Shown piece by piece: positions 1-8,833 of a stretch of DNA of 8,833 bases. The notes beneath the pieces were generated by a model. It was given only the letters and a program-made list of their open reading frames with translations. It made no database searches and was not told the DNA's origin. Positions within the stretch are counted from its first letter, which is position 1. Each line of letters starts with the position of its first letter. The translations under genes and the position numbers were made by a program. This stretch comes from a virus (taxonomy: Duplodnaviria; Heunggongvirae; Uroviricota; Caudoviricetes). Where the stretch lies: the IMG/VR virus record IMGVR_UViG_2547132277_000011; one strand, written 5' to 3'.

Positions 1-267
1 TTACTCTGCAGGTGAAGTCGGCCACTCAATATCAGGTGCGGTTGATGTATCAACACAGTTCAGCAACACCCGATACTTCTTCCAGGCTTCCAGCAACGAG
101 TTTTCTTCCTCCGTTGCGATCTCCAGATCTACAGCATCCTGAAGTGGCGCAATATGCTCACTGAATTCCTGGATGTAGAACTGTGTGGTGACGGTCTTCC
201 AGCCATTCGGCTCCTGCTGTATCGAAGCATACCAGGCTATTTCAATATCGCTATGCTGCGGCAGCAT
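1..267 (-). CDS. tfa: Tail fibre assembly (Tfa) family protein, short 88-aa form
   Basis: Complete ORF: ATG at 267..265, TAA at 3..1, with AAGGGG about 5 nt upstream of the ATG. The C-terminal ~55 aa ([53 protein letters not shown]) matches the conserved C-terminus of enterobacterial lambdoid Tfa proteins as I recall it (e.g. K-12 TfaR ...[25 protein letters not shown]...). The N-terminal ~35 aa is not recognisable. Very acidic (about 17 D/E versus 4 K/R). Confidence 0.7.
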
Positions 268-275
268 TTAACCCC

Positions 276-304
276 TTGTAATTCATCGCCACAATTGATT
301 TAAT
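276..304 (+). promoter_or_regulatory. Candidate sigma70 promoter for the methyltransferase gene (TTGTAA, 17-bp spacer, TTTAAT)
   Basis: -35-like TTGTAA at 276..281 and -10-like TTTAAT at 299..304 with a 17-bp spacer, 20 to 30 bp upstream of the ATGs at 324/336, in an AT-rich intergenic region. Sequence pattern only. Confidence 0.3.
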
Positions 305-323
305 TCACAAATAAAACTATAAC

Positions 324-992
324 ATGGTGAAATTAATGAAAAAAAACACAGATGATGGGGCTAAAATTTACACACCACTTACCCTAAAGCTTTATGACTG
401 GTGGGTTTTGGGAGTATCAAATCGGCTTGCATGGGGATGTCCTACAAAGGAACACCTTCTTCCACACTTTCTGGAACATTTAGGTAACAACCATCTGGAT
501 ATTGGTGTTGGAACTGGGTTTTACCTTACTCACGTACCTGAGAGTAGTCTGATATCTTTAATGGATTTGAACGAAGCTAGCCTGAACGCGGCATCGACAA
601 GGGCTGGGGAATCAAAAATTAAACATAAAATTAGCCATGATGTTTTTGAACCTTATCCCGCGGCATTACATGGTCAATTTGATTCCATTTCCATGTTTTA
701 CCTTCTTCACTGCCTGCCTGGAAATATATCTACAAAAAGCTGTGTAATACGCAATGCGGCGCAGGCCTTAACTGACGATGGAACTCTATACGGAGCCACA
801 ATTCTTGGTGACGGCGTTGTGCACAATAGCTTCGGTCAAAAACTGATGCGCATTTACAATCAAAAAGGCATCTTTTCAAACACAAAAGATTCCGAAGAAG
901 GCTTAACACATATACTCTCAGAGCATTTCGAGAATGTTAAAACCAAGATTAAAGGTACTGTAGTAATGTTTTCCGCTTCAGGGAAAAAATAG
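324..992 (+). CDS. ybcY: Class I SAM-dependent methyltransferase, UbiE/COQ5-like small-molecule type (not a DNA MTase by motif)
   Basis: 222-aa ORF with glycine-rich SAM-binding motif I (LDIGVGTG) and an upstream YDWWVLGVSNRLAWG segment resembling the UbiE-type motif. No DPPY/NPPY or PC/ENV DNA-MTase motifs seen. Start may be ATG 336 (GGTGA 5 nt upstream) rather than 324. Gene is markedly AT-rich (about 35% GC by hand count of the first 100 nt) compared with the neighbouring phage genes. The symbol is assigned from recalled synteny (a putative SAM MTase, ybcY, lies between tfaD and tfaX in K-12 DLP12), not from verified sequence identity. Confidence 0.85.
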   Translation: MVKLMKKNTDDGAKIYTPLTLKLYDWWVLGVSNRLAWGCPTKEHLLPHFLEHLGNNHLDIGVGTGFYLTHVPESSLISLMDLNEASLNAASTRAGESKIKHKISHDVFEPYPAALHGQFDSISMFYLLHCLPGNISTKSCVIRNAAQALTDDGTLYGATILGDGVVHNSFGQKLMRIYNQKGIFSNTKDSEEGLTHILSEHFENVKTKIKGTVVMFSASGKK

Positions 993-998
993 CATCCA

Positions 999-1033
999 GC
1001 CGCAGCACGTTCTTGCGCACGACGTGCTGCGGC
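999..1033. terminator. 12-bp perfect inverted repeat (GCCGCAGCACGT / ACGTGCTGCGGC) with an 11-nt loop, 7 bp after the MTase stop; possible bidirectional terminator or protein-binding site
   Basis: Arms at 999..1010 and 1022..1033 are exact reverse complements. No clean U-tract on either strand, so terminator function is uncertain. Confidence 0.35.
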
Positions 1034-1046
1034 ATAATCTCAATGA

Positions 1047-1175
1047 TTACTCCCTGACAGGGTTCGTAGGCCACTCAATATCAGGTGCAGTTGATGTACC
1101 AACACGGTTCAGCAACACCCTGCATGCCTTCCATGCCGCCAGCAATGATGTTTCCTCCTTCGTTGCATATACTGC
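1047..1175 (-). pseudogene. tfa: Tail fibre assembly (tfa) gene 3' remnant, C-terminal ~42 codons only
   Basis: Minus-strand frame translates to [42 protein letters not shown], homologous to the C-terminus of the 1..267 gene. Nucleotides about 1069..1170 are roughly 78 to 80% identical to 20..125 by hand alignment. The frame is closed by TGA at 1176..1178, so no N-terminal part remains. Confidence 0.65.
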
Positions 1176-1439
1176 TCACCTTTTTCACCCACGATTAACC
1201 AACAGCCAGATTCGCAGGCACGCCCCACCACGGCATATTCATACGCTTGCCATGTCCGAACATTTCAATCCAGCGATATTATGCCTGGGGTGTTCAAGCG
1301 CAATGAAGTACGTATTGTATCTTCGCGATTTTTTATAGGCTAATTGACGCGCAATTCTGAGCGGGGAGCGCACAATCAAACAGCACAGAATGGATCGCTG
1401 ATATTTATCCTTTTGTCGGTTTATCAAACAACAAGAGAG

Positions 1440-2654
1440 TCAATAGCGGATTGTCCCTACATCCATTTCTGGCGAATCCACTAACCAGAAATTATCTGGC
1501 TTTACAGCCAGAATGATCCAGGCAGTGTTTGTTGTTGATGACCAGGAAGGCAGCACATCGTATGCCGGGTCATCGCAAGAATCACGATAACCGTACTCAT
1601 TAAAAAGTGGAGCCATTGCTGCCACAAGATTCACCGCATTCAGCTCATTACCCAGCTTGCGCTCAAAAAGTGCCACACCTGCCGTTCCTTCCACCCACAC
1701 GCCACGGCTGTGACCACTATAACCATAATCAGGGTGGTACGGTGTGTAACCCGTGGTTTCCCTCGTACCAAATAAAAAACGCCCCATATATTTTCGGCAC
1801 TTAGCCGCTTTCTCAGCATCAATATTGGCAACAAACAATCCGCCCCAGGAAGACTGATCCAGCGCCGCTGCGTTGTCATAGTGGGTTGAATGAACCCCCT
1901 GTCGAAATCGGCCTTCATCTTCCACCCACAGACCTCTGATGATGCTCTTTGCCAGCCTGTCAGCCCGCTCACTGAAACCGTCAAATCCCAGCCGTCCCAT
2001 CAGTTCAAACAAAAACCAGATATCAACGTTATGCTCCAGTGCGCACCATTCGGCGACAAAAGTTTCATCAAAATTGCCGTCCACATAACGCCCCTGCCCC
2101 CCTTTATACAGGCCTTCACGCAGGTCGCCTGGTGTGCTCACCAGAAAAGTATCCAGCCAGGCAATGCCTGCCAATAGCTTTTCTCTGACCCGCGCAGTCT
2201 GAGTACCGTCCGGATACTTCTCCAGATAGAAAGCAAGAGCATAATAAACCCATGCCGCATTGCCCAAGCGGTAATAGGTACGCGGTGACATGGCAGACAG
2301 CCTGTTAACAAAAAACTTTACTCCACCGTTTTCATCAACAAGCGCACACAAGCCCGCAACGTATCTTTCTACAGCCTCATGTCGCTGAACCATCAACGCC
2401 AGTGCTGCCAGCGCCTGGTCATACGTGTAACACCGATCTTTCATCACCCTGATCACTTCGGGGTCTGCGTCCTCCGGCATCCAGTAGCTACGAATGAGCA
2501 GTGGAAACTCCAGCGTTGTGATCCACGCATTATCCTCAATCCGAATAAGACGAAACTGTTTTGCTCCCGTCCAGCAACGTCTGAAATAGAAAGTTCCGTC
2601 ACTATTCAAATTAGCGTCGCCGTTAAAATACTCTCCGGTTGTATAAGCATACAT
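1440..2654 (-). CDS. Hypothetical protein, 404 aa, function unknown (possibly an alpha-helical enzyme-like fold; alternatively the C-terminal domain of a larger deleted gene)
   Basis: Uninterrupted 1215-nt ORF with enterobacterial-looking codon usage; ATG at 2654..2652 with a weak SD. The frame is closed by TGA 12 codons upstream (2693..2691). No signal peptide or Walker motifs seen. Not recognisable to me as any lambdoid morphogenetic protein. Confidence 0.75.
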   Translation of the reverse strand: MYAYTTGEYFNGDANLNSDGTFYFRRCWTGAKQFRLIRIEDNAWITTLEFPLLIRSYWMPEDADPEVIRVMKDRCYTYDQALAALALMVQRHEAVERYVAGLCALVDENGGVKFFVNRLSAMSPRTYYRLGNAAWVYYALAFYLEKYPDGTQTARVREKLLAGIAWLDTFLVSTPGDLREGLYKGGQGRYVDGNFDETFVAEWCALEHNVDIWFLFELMGRLGFDGFSERADRLAKSIIRGLWVEDEGRFRQGVHSTHYDNAAALDQSSWGGLFVANIDAEKAAKCRKYMGRFLFGTRETTGYTPYHPDYGYSGHSRGVWVEGTAGVALFERKLGNELNAVNLVAAMAPLFNEYGYRDSCDDPAYDVLPSWSSTTNTAWIILAVKPDNFWLVDSPEMDVGTIRY

Positions 2655-3235
2655 ATCGACTTTATACTTTTCAGGTTCAGCCTGTTGCTCTCATCACTGG
2701 TCATGGGAATAAAGTCCGGCTCGAGCGCCTCCAGCCAGAAATGAACACCGGCAGAAGGCGTCAGGCTGTTTATGCGCCCGGAAACCATCTGGGCAAACAC
2801 CTCACCATCGCGCAGCCAGGTACGCAGCATCAGACGTTCCAGCATCGGACGGGTAAACTGCCCGGTGACCTCCGGACTGACAGACCATTCACTCCATCGG
2901 GTGCGTATCTCCGCTGCCAGATCACGGGCAATGGCCCCATTGCGTAATACCGGATGTGGCTCGACAATAATCCCGTTTTTCCCCACCACCCGTTCTTCCA
3001 GCTTGTCAAATACACCAATGACCAGATCGTGGTTGTTATCAAGGTAACGGGCCTGCTCACGTAACGACACGGCCCCGTACTGGCTTAACTGATCGGCAGT
3101 TCGGTTCTCCCGTCGGGCTTTGTGTGTCCGCGTCGTTTTTACGGCCTCATAAGCCTGGATCACCGCACGGGAACGCAGCCTTGCCGCTTTCCATCCTGGT
3201 GAAAAAACGCCAATCACATCATCAAGAATTGCCAT
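2606..3235 (-). pseudogene. B: Portal protein gene, N-terminal fragment (about 205 codons of an expected 500 or more); truncated near 2655..2700
   Basis: ORF begins MAILDDVIGVFSPGWKAARL... at ATG 3235..3233, overlapping the gpW stop (TGATG), which is the position of the portal gene in the lambda order Nu1-A-W-B. It stops at 2606 after about 209 codons, the last ~28 of which (SNRLNLKSIKSICMLIQPESILTATLI) look non-portal. The ORF-track start at 3307 is an upstream in-frame artefact inside W. Confidence 0.7.
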
Positions 3236-3453
3236 CAGAACCTCGCCAGCCGGTACCCGGGATGCCCCCGTCGTCGTGTAATCAGAGCCGCAAGGCGGCG
3301 CTCCCACTCCTGCCGCCCCTGCCGGATCTCAGATAAGTTTTCCATGGTCATCTGCTGACCATTAAAAGTGACGGATTTTCCGTCCAGCACCGCCATTTCA
3401 GCTTCCGTATAACGCTGAATCATGGCTTCGATATCATTCTGGTTCATAACCAT
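3235..3453 (-). CDS. W: Head-tail joining / head completion protein gpW-like (72 aa)
   Basis: Small ORF immediately downstream of the large terminase, overlapping it by 10 nt. The C-terminus ...ITRRRGHPGYRLARF resembles lambda gpW ...RRRGPAGFYV. Size and position match lambda W. Confidence 0.85.
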   Translation of the reverse strand: MVMNQNDIEAMIQRYTEAEMAVLDGKSVTFNGQQMTMENLSEIRQGRQEWERRLAALITRRRGHPGYRLARF

Positions 3454-5546
3454 CCTCCAGAAGTCAGCCAGGGGTTAACATCGTCAGTTACTGTTTTCTT
3501 CCGTTTTTGTTTTTTAACAGGCGTGGATACCGGTTCCGGTGAGGATGACGGTTCGGTACTGTCCTGGACACACTCCAGCCAGGTTTCCCGGCTCGCCCAC
3601 TCCGGTGCATCCGGCCAGCGGATCTTTTCGTATCCATGCAGAATGACCAGAGCCTCGGCATACACCATCAGGTCAAAAGCTTCGTTGGCACCGCGACCCG
3701 GCTTACTCCATTTCCCGTCACTGCTCCGCTCTTCATACGTCAGTTCGTCGTAAAACCAGCTCCCCAGCCAGTCAGGGAAATGCACATAGCCTGGACCTGG
3801 CGAGTCACGCCATAACGCGTTATTCACCCGGTCTTTCAGGGCATCCGTCTGAAGAAGCCAGAGCGGCACATCACCTGCGGCCTGCGCCCGGCGGCCCGTT
3901 CGTCCGGTGTTATCAGGGAATGTACGGCTGATCAGTTTTGCGCGCCGGATGCTGTCCCCCTTAAACAGGTAAATACGTTTACCAAGGCCATCACGACGGC
4001 AACGACGCCAGAATTTATAGGCATTATCAGTGACCCCGTCTTCACCGCCGGAGTCCACCGCCATTGCCATCAGTCGCATTTGTTGAGAAGGATCGGAGGC
4101 CAGCGGCCAGCTTTTATGAAAAACATCCGTCAGCAGGACATCCCAGTCTTCCGGATAGCTGGCCGGATCAATTCGCTGGCTCTCCCCGTCGCTGTCACCG
4201 CGCAATGACTGCGTGATGTTGTAACGATCAATAATCCAGCGTTCGCCACGGCTGCCATAGCCCGTTACCTGAACCACAAAACGGCGATGACGTCCCGCCT
4301 GCACATCCACTGTCGCCACAAGGAAATTAACGCCATCCGGCACACTGCGGGAAGGAACTGGCTCTGCCCGCTGCTCAAGCAGTTCACTTTTTCGTTGCTC
4401 CATGCTGGCGCGGGGAAGATAAGGTAATCCCCAGTCGGTATTGATAACCGTCTTGAGTGTTTCTTCACTTCCGGTTGTCTCGTATTCCTGTTCTGCAGTA
4501 AGCAGTTTGTAAACGAGTTGCGAGAGTGTCTGGTAAGCAGCTGCCGGACCCTCCATCCAGAATGACGCAATACGTGAGCGTCGGGGATCACCATAACGAC
4601 TGCCATCCGCATTGATGGATTCACCATCCCGCAACCAGACCCCACGTCCGTTCAGCTCACGTTTTTGTTCAGGCATAATCCGTCCTGAACAGGAAGGACA
4701 CTGAATATAAGCCGCCTCACTTGCCAGCACGGGAGCGGCAATATCACGGAAACCAGCAACCACATCGCCGCAGGGCTGAAAATACTCACCACAGTGTGGA
4801 CAAGGCCAGTACCAGCGACGGCGATCGCCACGGTTATAGAGCGACAGTATCCCCGTGGTTGGTGGAGCCTCATGCGGTGAAGTCCGTCGCCATTTCACAT
4901 CCTTCACATCCCTGCCGGGGGAACTCTCCACAAGCGTCATACCACTGGACATAAATGTTGTGGTACGTTTTGAGGCAAGAGAGAAAGCATCCCCCTCGCC
5001 ATCAATATCTTCCGGAAAACGGTCATAATCCGTCAGCGCGACGCATTTATAATCTGATGAGGACATGATATTGACTGACGGCCAGCCGATTTTCAGGTAG
5101 TTACCAGCAAGGAATGTTCTGTCATAAACGTTGTTGTCATTTTTGTTCGGACTCAGGCGACTGACCACTTCCGGGCTGACGCGAAACGTTCTGGCGAGTC
5201 GTTTTTTGGAGTGTTCGCGGGCTTTTTCCTCCGTCATCTGTATGATCAGCATATCAGCAGGATCGCAAATCACGTTGTAAATCACCCAGCCGTCAATCAG
5301 GCCGATAGTCTTACCGGTTCGTGCCGGGCCAACAAATATCACTGCGTCGTATTCACGCGAGGCCAGGCAGTTCATCGGCTCAATAACATACGGTGCCACC
5401 AGCGGATCCCACGGGACTGAATTCCCGGCCCCCATGGGCACCCGCATATACTGAGCAACGGCATCAGCAACCCGCATTCGTCTCGGTGCGCGAAGGATAT
5501 AACCTGAATCGGTTCGTGCTGCCTTTGCGGTTTCCTGATTCAGCAT
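3444..5546 (-). CDS. A: Terminase large subunit (lambda gpA family), 700 aa, apparently intact
   Basis: Walker A-like AVIFVGPARTGKT near the N-terminus; WYWPCPHCGEYFQ resembles lambda gpA ...ACPHCGEEQYL; C-terminal ...VYAEALVILHGYEKIRW resembles lambda ...CFVYALAALRISISRW. ATG 5546..5544 overlaps the Nu1-like stop (TAATG). Confidence 0.95.
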   Translation of the reverse strand: MLNQETAKAARTDSGYILRAPRRMRVADAVAQYMRVPMGAGNSVPWDPLVAPYVIEPMNCLASREYDAVIFVGPARTGKTIGLIDGWVIYNVICDPADMLIIQMTEEKAREHSKKRLARTFRVSPEVVSRLSPNKNDNNVYDRTFLAGNYLKIGWPSVNIMSSSDYKCVALTDYDRFPEDIDGEGDAFSLASKRTTTFMSSGMTLVESSPGRDVKDVKWRRTSPHEAPPTTGILSLYNRGDRRRWYWPCPHCGEYFQPCGDVVAGFRDIAAPVLASEAAYIQCPSCSGRIMPEQKRELNGRGVWLRDGESINADGSRYGDPRRSRIASFWMEGPAAAYQTLSQLVYKLLTAEQEYETTGSEETLKTVINTDWGLPYLPRASMEQRKSELLEQRAEPVPSRSVPDGVNFLVATVDVQAGRHRRFVVQVTGYGSRGERWIIDRYNITQSLRGDSDGESQRIDPASYPEDWDVLLTDVFHKSWPLASDPSQQMRLMAMAVDSGGEDGVTDNAYKFWRRCRRDGLGKRIYLFKGDSIRRAKLISRTFPDNTGRTGRRAQAAGDVPLWLLQTDALKDRVNNALWRDSPGPGYVHFPDWLGSWFYDELTYEERSSDGKWSKPGRGANEAFDLMVYAEALVILHGYEKIRWPDAPEWASRETWLECVQDSTEPSSSPEPVSTPVKKQKRKKTVTDDVNPWLTSGGWL

Positions 5547-6040
5547 TACTCCTCCCGCTGTAATTCCTCCTCATCATCCGCACCTGCTTCGGTCACCCGC
5601 AGGGCTATCTGATCGCGCAGATCATCAATAATGGACTGAACACGGCTCACAGCGGCAGGCTGCAGACCGCAGTCACGTTCAAGAATATCCGGTAATGTCT
5701 CCAGCACCTGCACGACCGCTTTTGCCCAGATGGCAAACTCTCGTCTGACATCACTGGCCGGAATGAGTTGTGCCGTTTCCTGTTCGAACTTAAGACGCTC
5801 ACGTTCAGACTGATACCAGGCTTTGCGCTCATGCGCGTCCATTTCGCCTTCTGCAACCGGCGGTGGTAATGCCAGAAATGCCGACACAATATCAACCACC
5901 CGATAAAGCTTGAGGTTGCTTTCATGCCCCCCTGCAACGGGTAGATTTTGCAGCCTTGCCGCAGCAGTCTGGCGATGTACACCTGACAGTGCCGCCAGTT
6001 GACTGATATTCAGCGTCAGATTTTTTAACTCTCGATCCAT
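5546..6040 (-). CDS. Nu1: Terminase small subunit (lambda Nu1-like), 164 aa
   Basis: N-terminal helix-turn-helix-like segment (LNISQLAALSGVHRQTAAARLQ) analogous to the lambda Nu1 DNA-binding N-terminus. GGAG SD 5 nt upstream of ATG 6040. Located about 175 bp downstream of the cosN-like sequence, as in lambda. Confidence 0.85.
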   Translation of the reverse strand: MDRELKNLTLNISQLAALSGVHRQTAAARLQNLPVAGGHESNLKLYRVVDIVSAFLALPPPVAEGEMDAHERKAWYQSERERLKFEQETAQLIPASDVRREFAIWAKAVVQVLETLPDILERDCGLQPAAVSRVQSIIDDLRDQIALRVTEAGADDEEELQREE

Positions 6041-6145
6041 ACCCGCTCCAGAATGTTTTAAACATGCATCTTGCGAACAACTTTAGGCAAACGGTGTTAG
6101 TGATGAACAAAAAACAATCAAAATCGACACCGCAAAAATAAAATC

Positions 6146-6169
6146 ACTGTAATATCAATACATTACAGT
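6146..6169. promoter_or_regulatory. Candidate IHF site (WATCAANNNNTTR match TATCAAtacaTTA at 6153..6165) centred in an 8-bp inverted repeat (ACTGTAAT / ATTACAGT); cosB-like
   Basis: Exact match to the IHF consensus, lying between the cosN-like sequence and the Nu1 start where lambda cosB carries IHF site I1. Arms 6146..6153 and 6162..6169 are reverse complements. Confidence 0.35.
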
Positions 6170-6198
6170 AGTGGTGATGACGAATGAAATTTCAAAAA

Positions 6199-6240
6199 CT
6201 AGCCTTTTTCCGCGACGCTCCCGCCCCGTGGCAGGCCACC
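6199..6240 (-). other. cos site: cosN-like cohesive-end region (predicted 12-nt end GGGCGGGAGCGT on the minus strand = plus 6215..6226)
   Basis: Minus strand reads GGGCGGGAGCGTCGCGGAAAAAGGCTAGTTTTTGAAATTTCATTCGTCAT, closely paralleling the lambda left end as I recall it (GGGCGGCGACCTCGCGGGTTTTCGCTATTTATGAAAATTTTCC...TTCGTCAT). The distance to the Nu1 start is similar to lambda. Confidence 0.55.
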
Positions 6241-6452
6241 CCACCGGAAGGACCCGCCAAAATGAGAGTGATTATCACCATTGCTGATGAATAAATTGAT
6301 GAAAATCATTGAAACGCCTTTCAGCAAGATAACGGCGACGGTCGTTGTTGAACTCCGTAACTCTGCTACTAAGGTTAAAAGCATGGCCATCTTTTGCCAC
6401 CGGCAAATCTTCAATGGATTTCCCCTGCCGGTTTTTTATTCCTCACATTATC

Positions 6453-6476
6453 GCAGCCCCTCAGTGAAGGGCTGCT
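6453..6476. other. 9-bp stem / 6-nt loop hairpin (GCAGCCCCT-cagtga-AGGGGCTGC) just downstream of the stop of the 6490..6855 ORF
   Basis: Perfect inverted repeat. No adjacent U-tract on either strand, so it is not called a canonical intrinsic terminator. Confidence 0.3.
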
Positions 6477-6489
6477 GTAATGCCTGCTG

Positions 6490-6855
6490 TTACTCAGTAA
6501 CGACCGCGCCTTCCGGTAATTTCATACCGGCAAATACCGGCAGCCCGGGGATCGTTATCTGCAGCTGGTTAGCCAGGGAGTTAATCTCAGCGACCAACAC
6601 TGGCTTCGTATAGCGCCATGCCGCCAGCCCTTGTCCACAGAAGCTCGCCATATCTTTTTTCTGATCAAACTCATGACACTTCATATTGAGCTGCGCACTT
6701 AAGCTGTTGCGATGCTGAAGTTCTCCGGTGAAGTAGTCATCCAGGACTTTATAGGCTGCATATTTAAATCCGGGGTTTAGCCATGCTGCATAATCATAAG
6801 CAACAAACTTCCCGCCATATGTTCCACCGTGTACACCGCGCTCAGTAAAAACCAC
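6490..6855 (-). CDS. Hypothetical protein; the N-terminal part resembles the C-terminal half of a KilA-N domain; possibly an N-terminally truncated remnant
   Basis: GVHGGTYGGKFVAYDYAAWLNPGFKYAAYKVL fits the KilA-N-type pattern G-T-W/Y...A...A-WL-S/N-P-x-F as I recall it. The only start candidate is GTG 6855 with a weak SD; the first ATG is internal. The frame runs directly in phase from the Rz stop (TAG 6879..6877). Confidence 0.4.
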   Translation of the reverse strand: MVFTERGVHGGTYGGKFVAYDYAAWLNPGFKYAAYKVLDDYFTGELQHRNSLSAQLNMKCHEFDQKKDMASFCGQGLAAWRYTKPVLVAEINSLANQLQITIPGLPVFAGMKLPEGAVVTE

Positions 6856-6876
6856 AGATTCGTGTTTTTTCTCCAG

Positions 6877-7344
6877 CTACTTAATGCGCTGGGTGCGGAT
6901 ATATTCCTGCGCCCCTTCCAGTTGCTTCTGCATCGTCATCAACCGTTCTCTGAGGGTGAAATAATCCCGTTCAGCGGTGTCTGCCAGTCGGGGGCTGGTT
7001 GCATTATCCATGCTGGTGGGTCCGGTGGCTTCACGCACGGCTGCGGAGCAACTGGCATTGACCCGCAGGCGCTTACGACCAGCGGCAACATCAGCGCGCA
7101 GAGTTTCATTTTCAGTTTTCGCATCGGCTAACTCCTTCGTGTATTTTGCATCGATCGCAGCAACATCACGCTGACGCTGCTGCATGTCAGCGATGGTGGC
7201 GGTCGCCTGCTTCAGCTCACTGACTTTTTTATCACGCTGTTCTTTGTAGGCGATGGCGTTATCACGGTAATGATTCAGCCCCAGACTAAGCACAACACAG
7301 GCCACCAGCAGCATAGCAATCACTACATACAGAACACGGTTCAT
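6877..7344 (-). CDS. Rz: Rz i-spanin (inner-membrane spanin), 155 aa from ATG 7344
   Basis: MNRVLYVVIAMLLVACVVLSLGLNHYRDNAIAYKEQRDK...DAKYTKELADAK...SPRLADTAERDYFTLRERL.TMQKQLEG matches lambda Rz near-colinearly. The ORF-track start at 7428 is an upstream GTG; I prefer ATG 7344, which aligns with the lambda Rz N-terminus. Confidence 0.9.
   Translation of the reverse strand: MNRVLYVVIAMLLVACVVLSLGLNHYRDNAIAYKEQRDKKVSELKQATATIADMQQRQRDVAAIDAKYTKELADAKTENETLRADVAAGRKRLRVNASCSAAVREATGPTSMDNATSPRLADTAERDYFTLRERLMTMQKQLEGAQEYIRTQRIK
6939..7124 (-). CDS. Rz1: Rz1 o-spanin (outer-membrane lipoprotein), 61 aa, embedded out of frame within Rz
   Basis: MRKLKMKLCALMLPLVVSACGS...CVKPPDPPAWIMQPAPDWQTPLNGIISPSENG matches lambda Rz1 (MLKLKMMLCVMMLPLVVVGC...PAWIMQPPPDWQTPLNGIISPSERG). 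Lipobox LVVSAC and a proline-rich body are present. It lies wholly inside Rz in another frame, as in lambda. Confidence 0.9.
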   Translation of the reverse strand: MRKLKMKLCALMLPLVVSACGSMPVAPQPCVKPPDPPAWIMQPAPDWQTPLNGIISPSENG

Positions 7345-7612
7345 ATCACCACCAACGGATTGCCCAGACCAGAACAGCGACCGCCACAAGGCGAATTGCA
7401 AAGGCCGTTGCCCGAATAAAATCAGCACTCATCTGTTTAAATAAATTGTTGTGTATGCAACCAGTGCAGTACAAATAATCCATGCAACTGGCGTCAGTAT
7501 ATGTCTGATGCCCCGGCATACCGCGATGATTTTTGCGGCATCGTCAGCACCCTGCGAAGTTGTTTCTGCTTTTATCATCAGTTGCCATGTCCCTCATGAC
7601 ACCCATCACCAC

Positions 7613-7895
7613 TCACGATTTCAGAGCAACAATCAATTTTGCCAGCCCATACAGCATCGGAGACACGGCGATGCCAACCGCCACCCACTTAATGGCAAAA
7701 GCCACCGCCCGGATAAGGCAGAGATTCGCCGTATTTTCTGTCTTATCTACAAACATATGCTATCGCTGCAACCGCAAAACCAATTGCCCCGATCATTGCC
7801 GATAATGCAAGAATAATTCCGGCAATATTTGCTGCTTTAGGTGTCATACTGCACCCTATACTCAGAAAGGTTTTATTGTTATCCTTTACCTGCAT
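7613..7895 (-). pseudogene. S-like class I holin remnant, apparently frameshifted into two short ORFs (7743..7895 and 7613..7756)
   Basis: Hand translation gives MQVKDNNKTFLSIGCSMTPKAANIAGIILALSAMIGAIGFAVAAIAYVCR* and, in a second frame, MFVDKTENTANLCLIRAVAFAIKWVAVGIAVSPMLYGLAKLIVALKS*. These resemble lambda S TMD1 ([27 protein letters not shown]) and the following FTKTVIDATMCAIIAWFIRD region. The frame break near 7745..7760 is at the position corresponding to lambda RGRYNGGAF. Both pieces are below the ORF-track size cutoff. Confidence 0.35.
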
Positions 7896-7927
7896 GAATT
7901 ATATCCATGTCTGATTTGTCAAAATGC

Positions 7928-7956
7928 AACCCCGGACTGTTCCCCCAGCCGGGGTT
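7928..7956 (-). terminator. Rho-independent terminator-like hairpin (8-bp stem AACCCCGG/CCGGGGTT, 13-nt loop) followed on the minus strand by GCAUUUUG; analogous in position to lambda tR' upstream of S
   Basis: Perfect 8-bp GC-rich stem at 7928..7935 and 7949..7956 with a U-run immediately 3' on the minus strand. A T-run also follows on the plus strand, so it could act bidirectionally. It sits directly upstream of the holin-like remnant. Confidence 0.5.
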
Positions 7957-8149
7957 TTACTTTTATTCACTTACCTTTTGCCAGTTTGCAGGATTTCGTG
8001 TTATCCGCTCGCGGGAGCACACGCCATTTTTCAGCAAAATATTCTGCTAGCTGTCGATACCCCAGCACACCAGTGCCGCTTCCTGGTCACGGCGAATAAC
8101 CTGTCCATAGCAGTTATTTGAACGTATGCGGCAATCGCGTCCACCATCT

Positions 8150-8833
<684 letters not shown>

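Follow-up and report, generated by a model that had tools for sequence, protein, structure and literature searches.

The closest textbook case for the locus described here is DLP12 of E. coli K-12, in which packaging genes run straight into fibre-region remnants (nohD - aaaD - tfaD - ybcY - tfaX) and the head-tail module has been deleted. The DLP12 deletion extends from within the large terminase gene to a tail fibre assembly gene, and aaaD, a 309-nt terminase A pseudogene, abuts tfaD. Defective prophages of the O157 Sakai type are likewise lambdoid and carry deletions and IS insertions in morphogenesis and lysis genes, while int/xis and regulatory genes are kept. The defective prophage pool of E. 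coli O157 Sakai was reportedly the subject of work by Asadulghani et al. in 2009. Our literature search for the specific element studied here returned nothing specific, only general accounts of cryptic prophages and of the potC site. Cryptic prophages without progeny-production genes are common in bacterial chromosomes (PMC6832061), and potC is a documented insertion site of lambdoid (Stx) phages (PMC8065619).

We analysed a stretch of DNA of 8,833 nt, hereafter the window, which is 100% identical to positions 3,100,374-3,109,206 of the chromosome of E. coli strain B2C, isolated from human stool in Viet Nam. The B2C prophage is lambdoid and is integrated, unlike DLP12, between potB and potC, forming a phage block bounded by host genes. 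Its int/xis genes adjoin potC, and its tail fibre end adjoins potB, which lies just past the right prophage end (the window 1..1166 side). The element retains int/xis, early and regulatory genes, Q, the holin gene, Rz/Rz1 and a complete terminase. We saw no virulence cargo within the window. Other lambdoid sequences are present in the same chromosome, which has 10 places matching the window. The features of the window are collected in Table 1.

Table 1. Features of the 8,833-nt window; positions are counted from its first nucleotide.
Feature	Position	Strand	Basis or remark
Tail fibre assembly fragment 1	1..174	-	PGAP; Caudo_TAP Pfam match; right prophage end
Class I SAM methyltransferase, intact	324..992	+	PGAP; methyltransferase Pfam match
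Tail fibre assembly fragment 2	1047..1166	-	PGAP; Caudo_TAP Pfam match; right prophage end
404-aa ORF (fibre remnant)	1440..2654	-	
Side tail fibre gene, 3' two-thirds (nt 590-1830 of a gene of 1,830 nt, 609 codons)	1440..2680	-	1,241 nt
Truncated portal ORF	3235..2606	-	209 codons plus stop, 630 nt
Read-through tail of the portal ORF, out of frame in fibre sequence	2606..2675	-	22 codons plus TGA; translation LKSIKSICMLIQPESILTATLI, then stop
Junction: 5-bp microhomology CTGAA	2676..2680	-	One copy kept, no filler bases
Portal gene, 5' part (codons 1-187 of 502)	2676..3235	-	Third base of codon 187 at 2675
Double in-frame stop TGATGA in portal-derived sequence	2696..2691	-	Translation Q, two stops, then EQQAEPEKYKVDMYAY
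Small head-completion (W-position) gene, intact, 70 aa	3235..3447	-	WP_001072975.1
Large terminase subunit, intact, 700 aa	3444..5546	-	GpA_ATPase 2-247 of 247; GpA_nuclease 1-294 of 294
DUF1441 protein in the small-terminase (Nu1) position, intact, 164 aa	5546..6040	-	PF07278 at 141 bits; annotated intact
Small lysis-region ORFs, then Rz with embedded Rz1, then a short ORF with an ORF11CD3 domain		-	
End of the IS21-family element ISEc62 (istB), inserted in the lysozyme gene; lysozyme fragment 8053..8151	8053..8833	-	IstB_IS21 Pfam match

The likeness to DLP12 lies both in the direct passage from packaging genes to fibre-region remnants and in the right end, where window 21..1166 has 95.3% identity to the DLP12 arrangement tfa - SAM methyltransferase - tfa. 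However, the terminase and W genes are intact in the window, its breakpoints fall in portal codon 187 and side tail fibre codon 197, and its methyltransferase is intact, whereas that of K-12 is a pseudogene (ybcY). The deletion in the window is analogous to, but distinct from, the nohD-aaaD-tfaD arrangement. We propose that one internal deletion of about 16.3-16.7 kb in a potB/potC lambdoid prophage fused the portal and side tail fibre genes at a CTGAA repeat, once, in the ancestor of a clade. From the comparisons described below, we estimate the probability of this reading at roughly 0.93.

The portal ORF runs on the minus strand over the span that an earlier reading of the letters alone (the sequence-only reading) had given, and it overlaps the upstream 70-aa W-like gene by a single base, in TGATG, where the stop TGA runs into the start ATG, also as read there. 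The portal gene of strain 1EC213 sits in the same context, likewise with a 1-nt overlap of start and stop, and the W-like protein itself, under one accession, is common to B2C and the intact 1EC213 prophage. Residues 1-187 are identical (187/187) to the 502-aa portal protein WP_000985939.1 of 1EC213. The ORF matches PF05136, the lambda-family portal profile, with 100 bits (E 2e-28; profile positions 3-149 of 354), above the family cut-off of 32.9 bits. That identity and this family match dispose of one condition that the sequence-only reading had named as refuting it, a fragment matching no portal protein. Against TIGR01539 the score is 132 bits over profile positions 2-154 of 457, below the full-length (equivalog) cut-off of 172.7 bits, while an intact 502-aa relative scores 452.6 bits over positions 2-457. 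The missing share amounts to 63% of the protein, residues 188-502, corresponding to TIGR01539 positions 155-457. A full-length portal protein is required for the dodecameric ring. The stump, as judged from these profile matches, is a gene fragment and not a functional member of the family.

Alignment to full-length portals, which the sequence-only reading had proposed, puts the end of homology at residue 187, and DNA homology to intact portal genes stops at 2676. The read-through that it had recognised is real; its estimates of about 181 or 205 portal codons and about 28 codons of read-through give way to 187 and 22. The final 22 residues (LKSIKSICMLIQPESILTATLI) have no portal counterpart, and the DNA that encodes them is 99.7-99.85% identical to the fibre gene of relatives. 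The breakpoint, at 2676-2680, lies within the bracket of 2655-2700 that had been predicted, and the stop noted near the junction upstream of the 404-aa frame proved to be a double one, TGATGA, which closes the fibre reading frame just upstream of the junction. What follows the junction had been taken for foreign sequence. This was mistaken: the DNA there belongs to the prophage's own side tail fibre gene, of which it is the 3' 1,241 nt.

The 404-aa ORF begins at an internal Met of that fibre gene, which is an open 609-codon frame in strains F9792 and 214-4 and in phage phiSTEC1575-Stx2k. Its product shares 99% identity with the C-terminal part of the phiSTEC1575-Stx2k "tail protein", and at the DNA level the B2C-type genomes match the fibre-gene query over its range 590-1830. 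An identical 404-aa sequence has an entry as "phage tail protein, partial", on 76 contigs. When the 475-aa fibre stump of strain MB06101 was used as the query in place of the 404-aa form, the homologues were mostly proteins of 605-609 aa with a PF08400 prophage tail fibre N-terminal domain, matching at 87-97% over the query. The only other matches of the 404-aa sequence are, at 59% identity, a hypothetical protein of Escherichia phage ph0011 and, at 22-30% identity, Microbacterium, Thermus and Coprococcus phage proteins, some of them annotated as minor tail proteins. The PGAP annotation already treats both sides of the junction as truncated: its label for 2675..3307 is "phage portal protein, missing C-terminus", and that for 1440..2678 is "phage tail protein, missing N-terminus".

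Alignments to portal-bearing relatives start at 2676, and those to fibre-bearing relatives end at 2680, so that the two overlap by the five bases CTGAA. On the minus strand the window reads AACAGG-CTGAA-CCTGAAAAG; the portal parent, in the 1EC213 allele, reads AACAGG-CTGAA-TCAGGGCG, and the fibre parent reads ATATTT-CTGAA-CC(A/T)GAAAAG. CTGAA is therefore found at both parental endpoints, in the portal gene (1EC213) and in the fibre gene (B4103-1, F9792 and 214-4), with mismatches directly on each side. By the chance-overlap formula (k+1)(1/4)^k(3/4)^2, an overlap of 5 bp or more is calculated to be expected at about 0.5% of random junctions. The breakpoint has neither a transposable element nor a site-specific recombination site; portal coding sequence abuts fibre coding sequence. 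With collinear flanks, nothing inserted and one copy of the repeat kept, the junction has the appearance that a microhomology-mediated deletion would leave. Two substitutions within 25 nt of the junction, at 2655 and 2673, differ from B4103-1, MB06101 and F9792, and we considered them as scars of error-prone repair. We rejected this explanation because the intact fibre gene of 214-4 has both bases and matches window 2618..2680 at 100%; they are therefore ordinary allelic variants that existed before the deletion.

The size and content of the loss were obtained by comparison with near-intact versions of the same prophage in F9792 and 214-4, which occupy the same potB/potC site and have an identical right end. 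Phage phiSTEC1575-Stx2k had been a candidate for an intact reference and was rejected: the fibre gene is all that it shares, with a portal and head genes of a different type, and F9792 and 214-4 therefore served as references. From the fibre to the potB end, window 1..2680 aligns ungapped with B4103-1, MB06101, F9792 and 214-4 at 99.7-99.85% identity (99.74% for F9792, 99.85% for 214-4). On the other side of the junction, window 2690..8150 aligns ungapped with F9792 at 96.6%, and window 2690..5967 aligns with 214-4 at 94.6%, the compared 214-4 locus ending there. Both blocks are collinear with one intact prophage, in the same order and orientation. Between them lie 16,294 bp in F9792 and 16,713 bp in 214-4, including in each a complete head-tail module. 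In F9792 coordinates, 15 whole head and tail genes and parts of two more (portal and fibre) are lost. The lost interval starts with the 3' 63% of the portal gene, a ClpP-like prohead protease/major capsid fusion gene and a DUF2190 gene. It continues with a small gene annotated as "DNA breaking-rejoining protein", a tail protein gene, U, the tail tube gene, G and T, and ends with the tape measure gene, homologues of M, L, K (C40 peptidase), I and J, lom, and nt 1-589 of the fibre gene.

These comparisons bear out the sequence-only reading where it had called for a loss of well over 10 kb, by a large deletion and not a frameshift, and they define the endpoints, with the microhomology between them, that it had hoped intact relatives would provide. 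Its alternative wording, "deletion or replacement", can be narrowed to an internal deletion. Its statement that no head, tail or fibre genes follow is correct for the head genes and for nearly all tail genes; a fibre remnant and two tail-fibre-assembly fragments are nevertheless present. The packaging genes upstream are intact, as it had maintained: both domains of the 700-aa terminase are complete, its length equals that in intact relatives, and the DUF1441 and W-like proteins are present. It had also held that the prophage cannot make virions. The underlying loss is evident, and since no head gene and hardly any tail gene remains, the element would presumably be unable to build virions by itself.

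In our reading, a single deletion joined portal nucleotide 560 to fibre nucleotide 590. The two stumps are out of frame with each other, and the portal frame runs 22 codons into the fibre sequence and stops. The 5-bp microhomology, the lack of filler and the flanking mismatches point to illegitimate, RecA-independent recombination, likely by replication slippage or microhomology-mediated end joining. The event would have occurred once, in the ancestor of a small enterotoxigenic clade, and would have been inherited vertically since. Its product would be a defective (cryptic) prophage lacking the means to build capsid or tail, in keeping with a host-flanked phage block that has lost virion genes relative to intact relatives. 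The lysozyme gene is broken separately. Lysozyme pieces flank istA/istB on both sides in the PGAP annotation, relatives without the IS cease to align with the window at 8150, and the sole IS in the window begins at 8151; the splitting of the gene by ISEc62 is a second inactivating lesion of the same prophage. Deletion, IS insertion and retained int/xis and regulatory genes together recall the O157 Sakai type.

The immediate parent of this deletion is a reconstructed one and not one observed, none of the compared genomes having both exact parental alleles. The left arm (2676..8150) finds its best match, at 99.2%, in a prophage located at rspB in strain 1EC213, and F9792 and 214-4 reach only the 96.6% and 94.6% given above. 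This mosaic similarity, set beside the 99.7-99.85% of the right arm to intact potB/potC prophages, is what would be expected if two prophages, or a resident and an incoming phage, had recombined illegitimately, placing a packaging-lysis module onto the fibre stump of a decayed resident. That a fibre gene can exist as a stump is known from a sister lineage, represented by B4103-1. However, that same lineage, at the same potB/potC site, has the same packaging and lysis allele (window 4156..8150, 99.3% identical), and the left-arm allele is therefore native to the locus. On either side of the junction the genes have the order and orientation of one intact prophage, and homologous exchange, as in lambdoid mosaicism generally, accounts for the allele differences without a second illegitimate event. 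Since the packaging allele is shared with the sister lineage at this site, a simple deletion within the element is the economical reading, and we regard the replacement as improbable. The sister lineage also has a deletion from the tape measure gene to the fibre gene, and for this reason the ancestor of the B2C-type prophage might already have lacked some tail genes, in which case the event would have removed less than 16 kb.

A role for the remaining genes may also be considered. Int/xis, early and regulatory genes, a complete terminase and the W-like gene are kept, which makes it conceivable that the element is a helper-dependent, satellite-like passenger in the capsids of a co-resident lambdoid phage; defective lambdoid prophages are sometimes mobilised with the help of other prophages (review, PMC8065619). 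We would give this possibility, together with that of the 404-codon domain, retained in two lineages that decayed independently, being an expressed and selected carbohydrate-active protein of benefit to the host, a very small chance.

Alternatively, the arrangement could have been kept because the 209-aa stump or the 404-aa fibre domain, domesticated and possibly glycosidase-like, is useful to the host. In favour, the frame of 404 codons has stayed open; so has a 475-codon stump in the sister lineage, which decayed independently and in which this stump has a protein annotation; and the annotation of one genome at the fibre-gene match lists a "glucosidase family protein" beside the fibre protein. 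Yet open frames are to be expected, because the deletion would be recent (4-10 substitutions in 2.7 kb relative to the relatives). By eye, the ATG at 2654 is preceded by no recognisable Shine-Dalgarno sequence (aaagtataaagtcgatATG), and two stops upstream close the fibre frame. The domain is normally a trimeric fibre tip, anchored via an N-terminal domain that is now missing, and searches of its sequence against Pfam, NCBIfam and PDB produced no match to a family or structure that would speak for an enzymatic role. A benefit to the host is, on this evidence, very improbable.

Prophage regions are repeat-rich and prone to misassembly, so that the junction could in principle be a collapse or chimera in one assembly. 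We searched 5,426 complete E. coli genomes with a 121-nt junction probe, which matched end to end at 100% identity in 10 of them: B2C, 99-3165, F5656C1, 2011EL-1370-2 (O6:H16), FMU073332, LR882973, E70, E143, E272 and E1624. About 1,865 further genomes matched just one of its halves. The 10 genomes were sequenced independently, in different laboratories and countries, they are always annotated with portal and tail protein pseudogenes at the junction, and the sequence at the junction is unique and does not coincide with a long repeat. An identical junction in 10 genomes therefore argues against an assembly artefact, to which we give almost no weight, and indicates a single event that would have been inherited vertically in a small enterotoxigenic E. 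coli clade.

A simple frameshift or sequencing error, with the rest of the portal encoded in another frame through 1440..2654, can be set aside with near certainty: nothing more than a change of open frame near 2654-2693 speaks for it, and the portal homology in another frame by which the sequence-only reading would have let itself be overturned is absent. When the 502-aa portal was searched with tblastn against the window in six frames, only residues 1-187 were matched (the other hits have E values of at least 0.2), a BLASTP comparison of the portal with the 404-aa ORF yielded nothing better than E 0.26, and that ORF is a phage tail fibre at 99% identity.

The internal deletion that we favour can be compared with a further remnant of the same prophage, in E. 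coli O27:H7 strains B4103-1 and MB06101. This sister remnant has the same site and the same right end, and the shared parts of its packaging and lysis genes show 99.3% identity. It differs in having three other deletions, from terminase to portal, from protease to U and from tape measure to fibre, and of its portal the C-terminus survives and the N-terminus is lost, the reverse of the state in the window.

In summary, this is ordinary prophage decay, and both pieces were already pseudogenes in public (RefSeq/PGAP) annotation. The main value of our results lies in the correct annotation of the locus and in a base-pair record of one decay step in a potB/potC lambdoid prophage of an enterotoxigenic clade. 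The junction, present in 10 of the 5,426 complete genomes, could serve as a clonal marker for this clade. Together with the three deletions of the sister lineage, it neatly illustrates how one and the same prophage has been eroded independently, in association with microhomology.

The fibre fragment retained at the portal-fibre deletion carries a C-terminal domain for which sequence searches of Pfam, NCBIfam and PDB returned no match. A hypothetical protein of Escherichia phage ph0011 is 59% identical to it, and its other phage homologues are all distant (22-30% identity) and come from Microbacterium, Thermus and Coprococcus phages, part of them being annotated as minor tail protein. In F9792 and 214-4, the strains with a near-intact version of the prophage, the fibre gene has an open frame of 609 codons, yet PGAP annotates it as a truncated gene comprising the first 417 nt only. 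In one E. coli genome, a 'glucosidase family protein' is listed beside the fibre protein in the annotation under the fibre match.

At 2655 and 2673, no more than 25 nt from the junction, the window differs from three relatives by two substitutions. These could be read as a scar of the repair event. We rejected this reading, as the intact fibre gene of 214-4 has both bases, which are therefore pre-existing alleles.

Features of the B2C prophage and of its sister lineage (L001, B2C locus; L003 and L004, B4103-1/MB06101 loci; L006 and L008, loci of relatives)
Feature	Window	Locus	Description
Two tail-fibre-assembly gene fragments	1-1166		either side of the methyltransferase
Class I SAM methyltransferase	within 1-1166		222 aa; strand opposite to both fragments
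Side tail fibre, C-terminal domain	1440-2654	L006 37222-39051; L008 18823-20652	~400 aa
ORF with ORF11CD3 domain	6490-6876		directly downstream of Rz
Rz/Rz1 pair	6877-7344 and 6939-7124		typical layout
Prophage lysozyme gene with ISEc62	8053-8833	L001 20053-22709	gene interrupted by ISEc62 (IS21 family, istA/istB)
Four tRNA genes (Ile, Lys, Thr, Gly)	beyond window	L001 23592-23901	between Q antiterminator region and holin gene
Sister-lineage prophage		L003 8837-13897; L004	
Deletion 1 (vs 214-4)			~9.5 kb; fibre nt ~357 to tape measure
Deletion 2 (vs 214-4)			~3.1 kb; U to prohead protease
Deletion 3 (vs 214-4)			~1.7 kb; portal N-terminus, W, terminase C-terminus

Two blocks of the window resemble DLP12, the cryptic lambdoid prophage of E. 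coli K-12. The block containing the methyltransferase is 95.3% identical to tfaX-ybcY-tfaD, although the methyltransferase is a pseudogene in K-12 (ybcY) and intact in the window. The Rz/Rz1 pair, in which a lipoprotein-like ORF of 61 aa is embedded in another frame of the Rz gene, shows 82% identity to rzpD/rzoD. In the B2C annotation, the neighbouring ORF11CD3 ORF is a pseudogene with 'missing N-terminus' and adjoins Rz without a gap, whereas in relatives the gene is intact and separate, with a length of 363 nt and a 21-nt spacer. Between 2676 and 8150, the window differs from the related intact prophage of 1EC213 by a 1-nt indel at some point.

In the nine other genomes with the exact portal-fibre junction, the match to the window stops at 8150. 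ISEc62 is thus absent there at that position, and the portal-fibre deletion predates its insertion. The MB06101 copy of the prophage also has ISEc62, elsewhere in the prophage. The four-tRNA cluster is also present in the F9792 and B4103-1 prophages.

B4103-1 and MB06101 carry the B2C prophage, also between potB and potC, but with three other deletions when 214-4 is taken as the reference. Of their portal, the C-terminus remains while the N-terminus is gone, the reverse of the situation in the window. This shows that one prophage has been eroded independently in two lineages, the B2C type and the B4103-1/MB06101 type.
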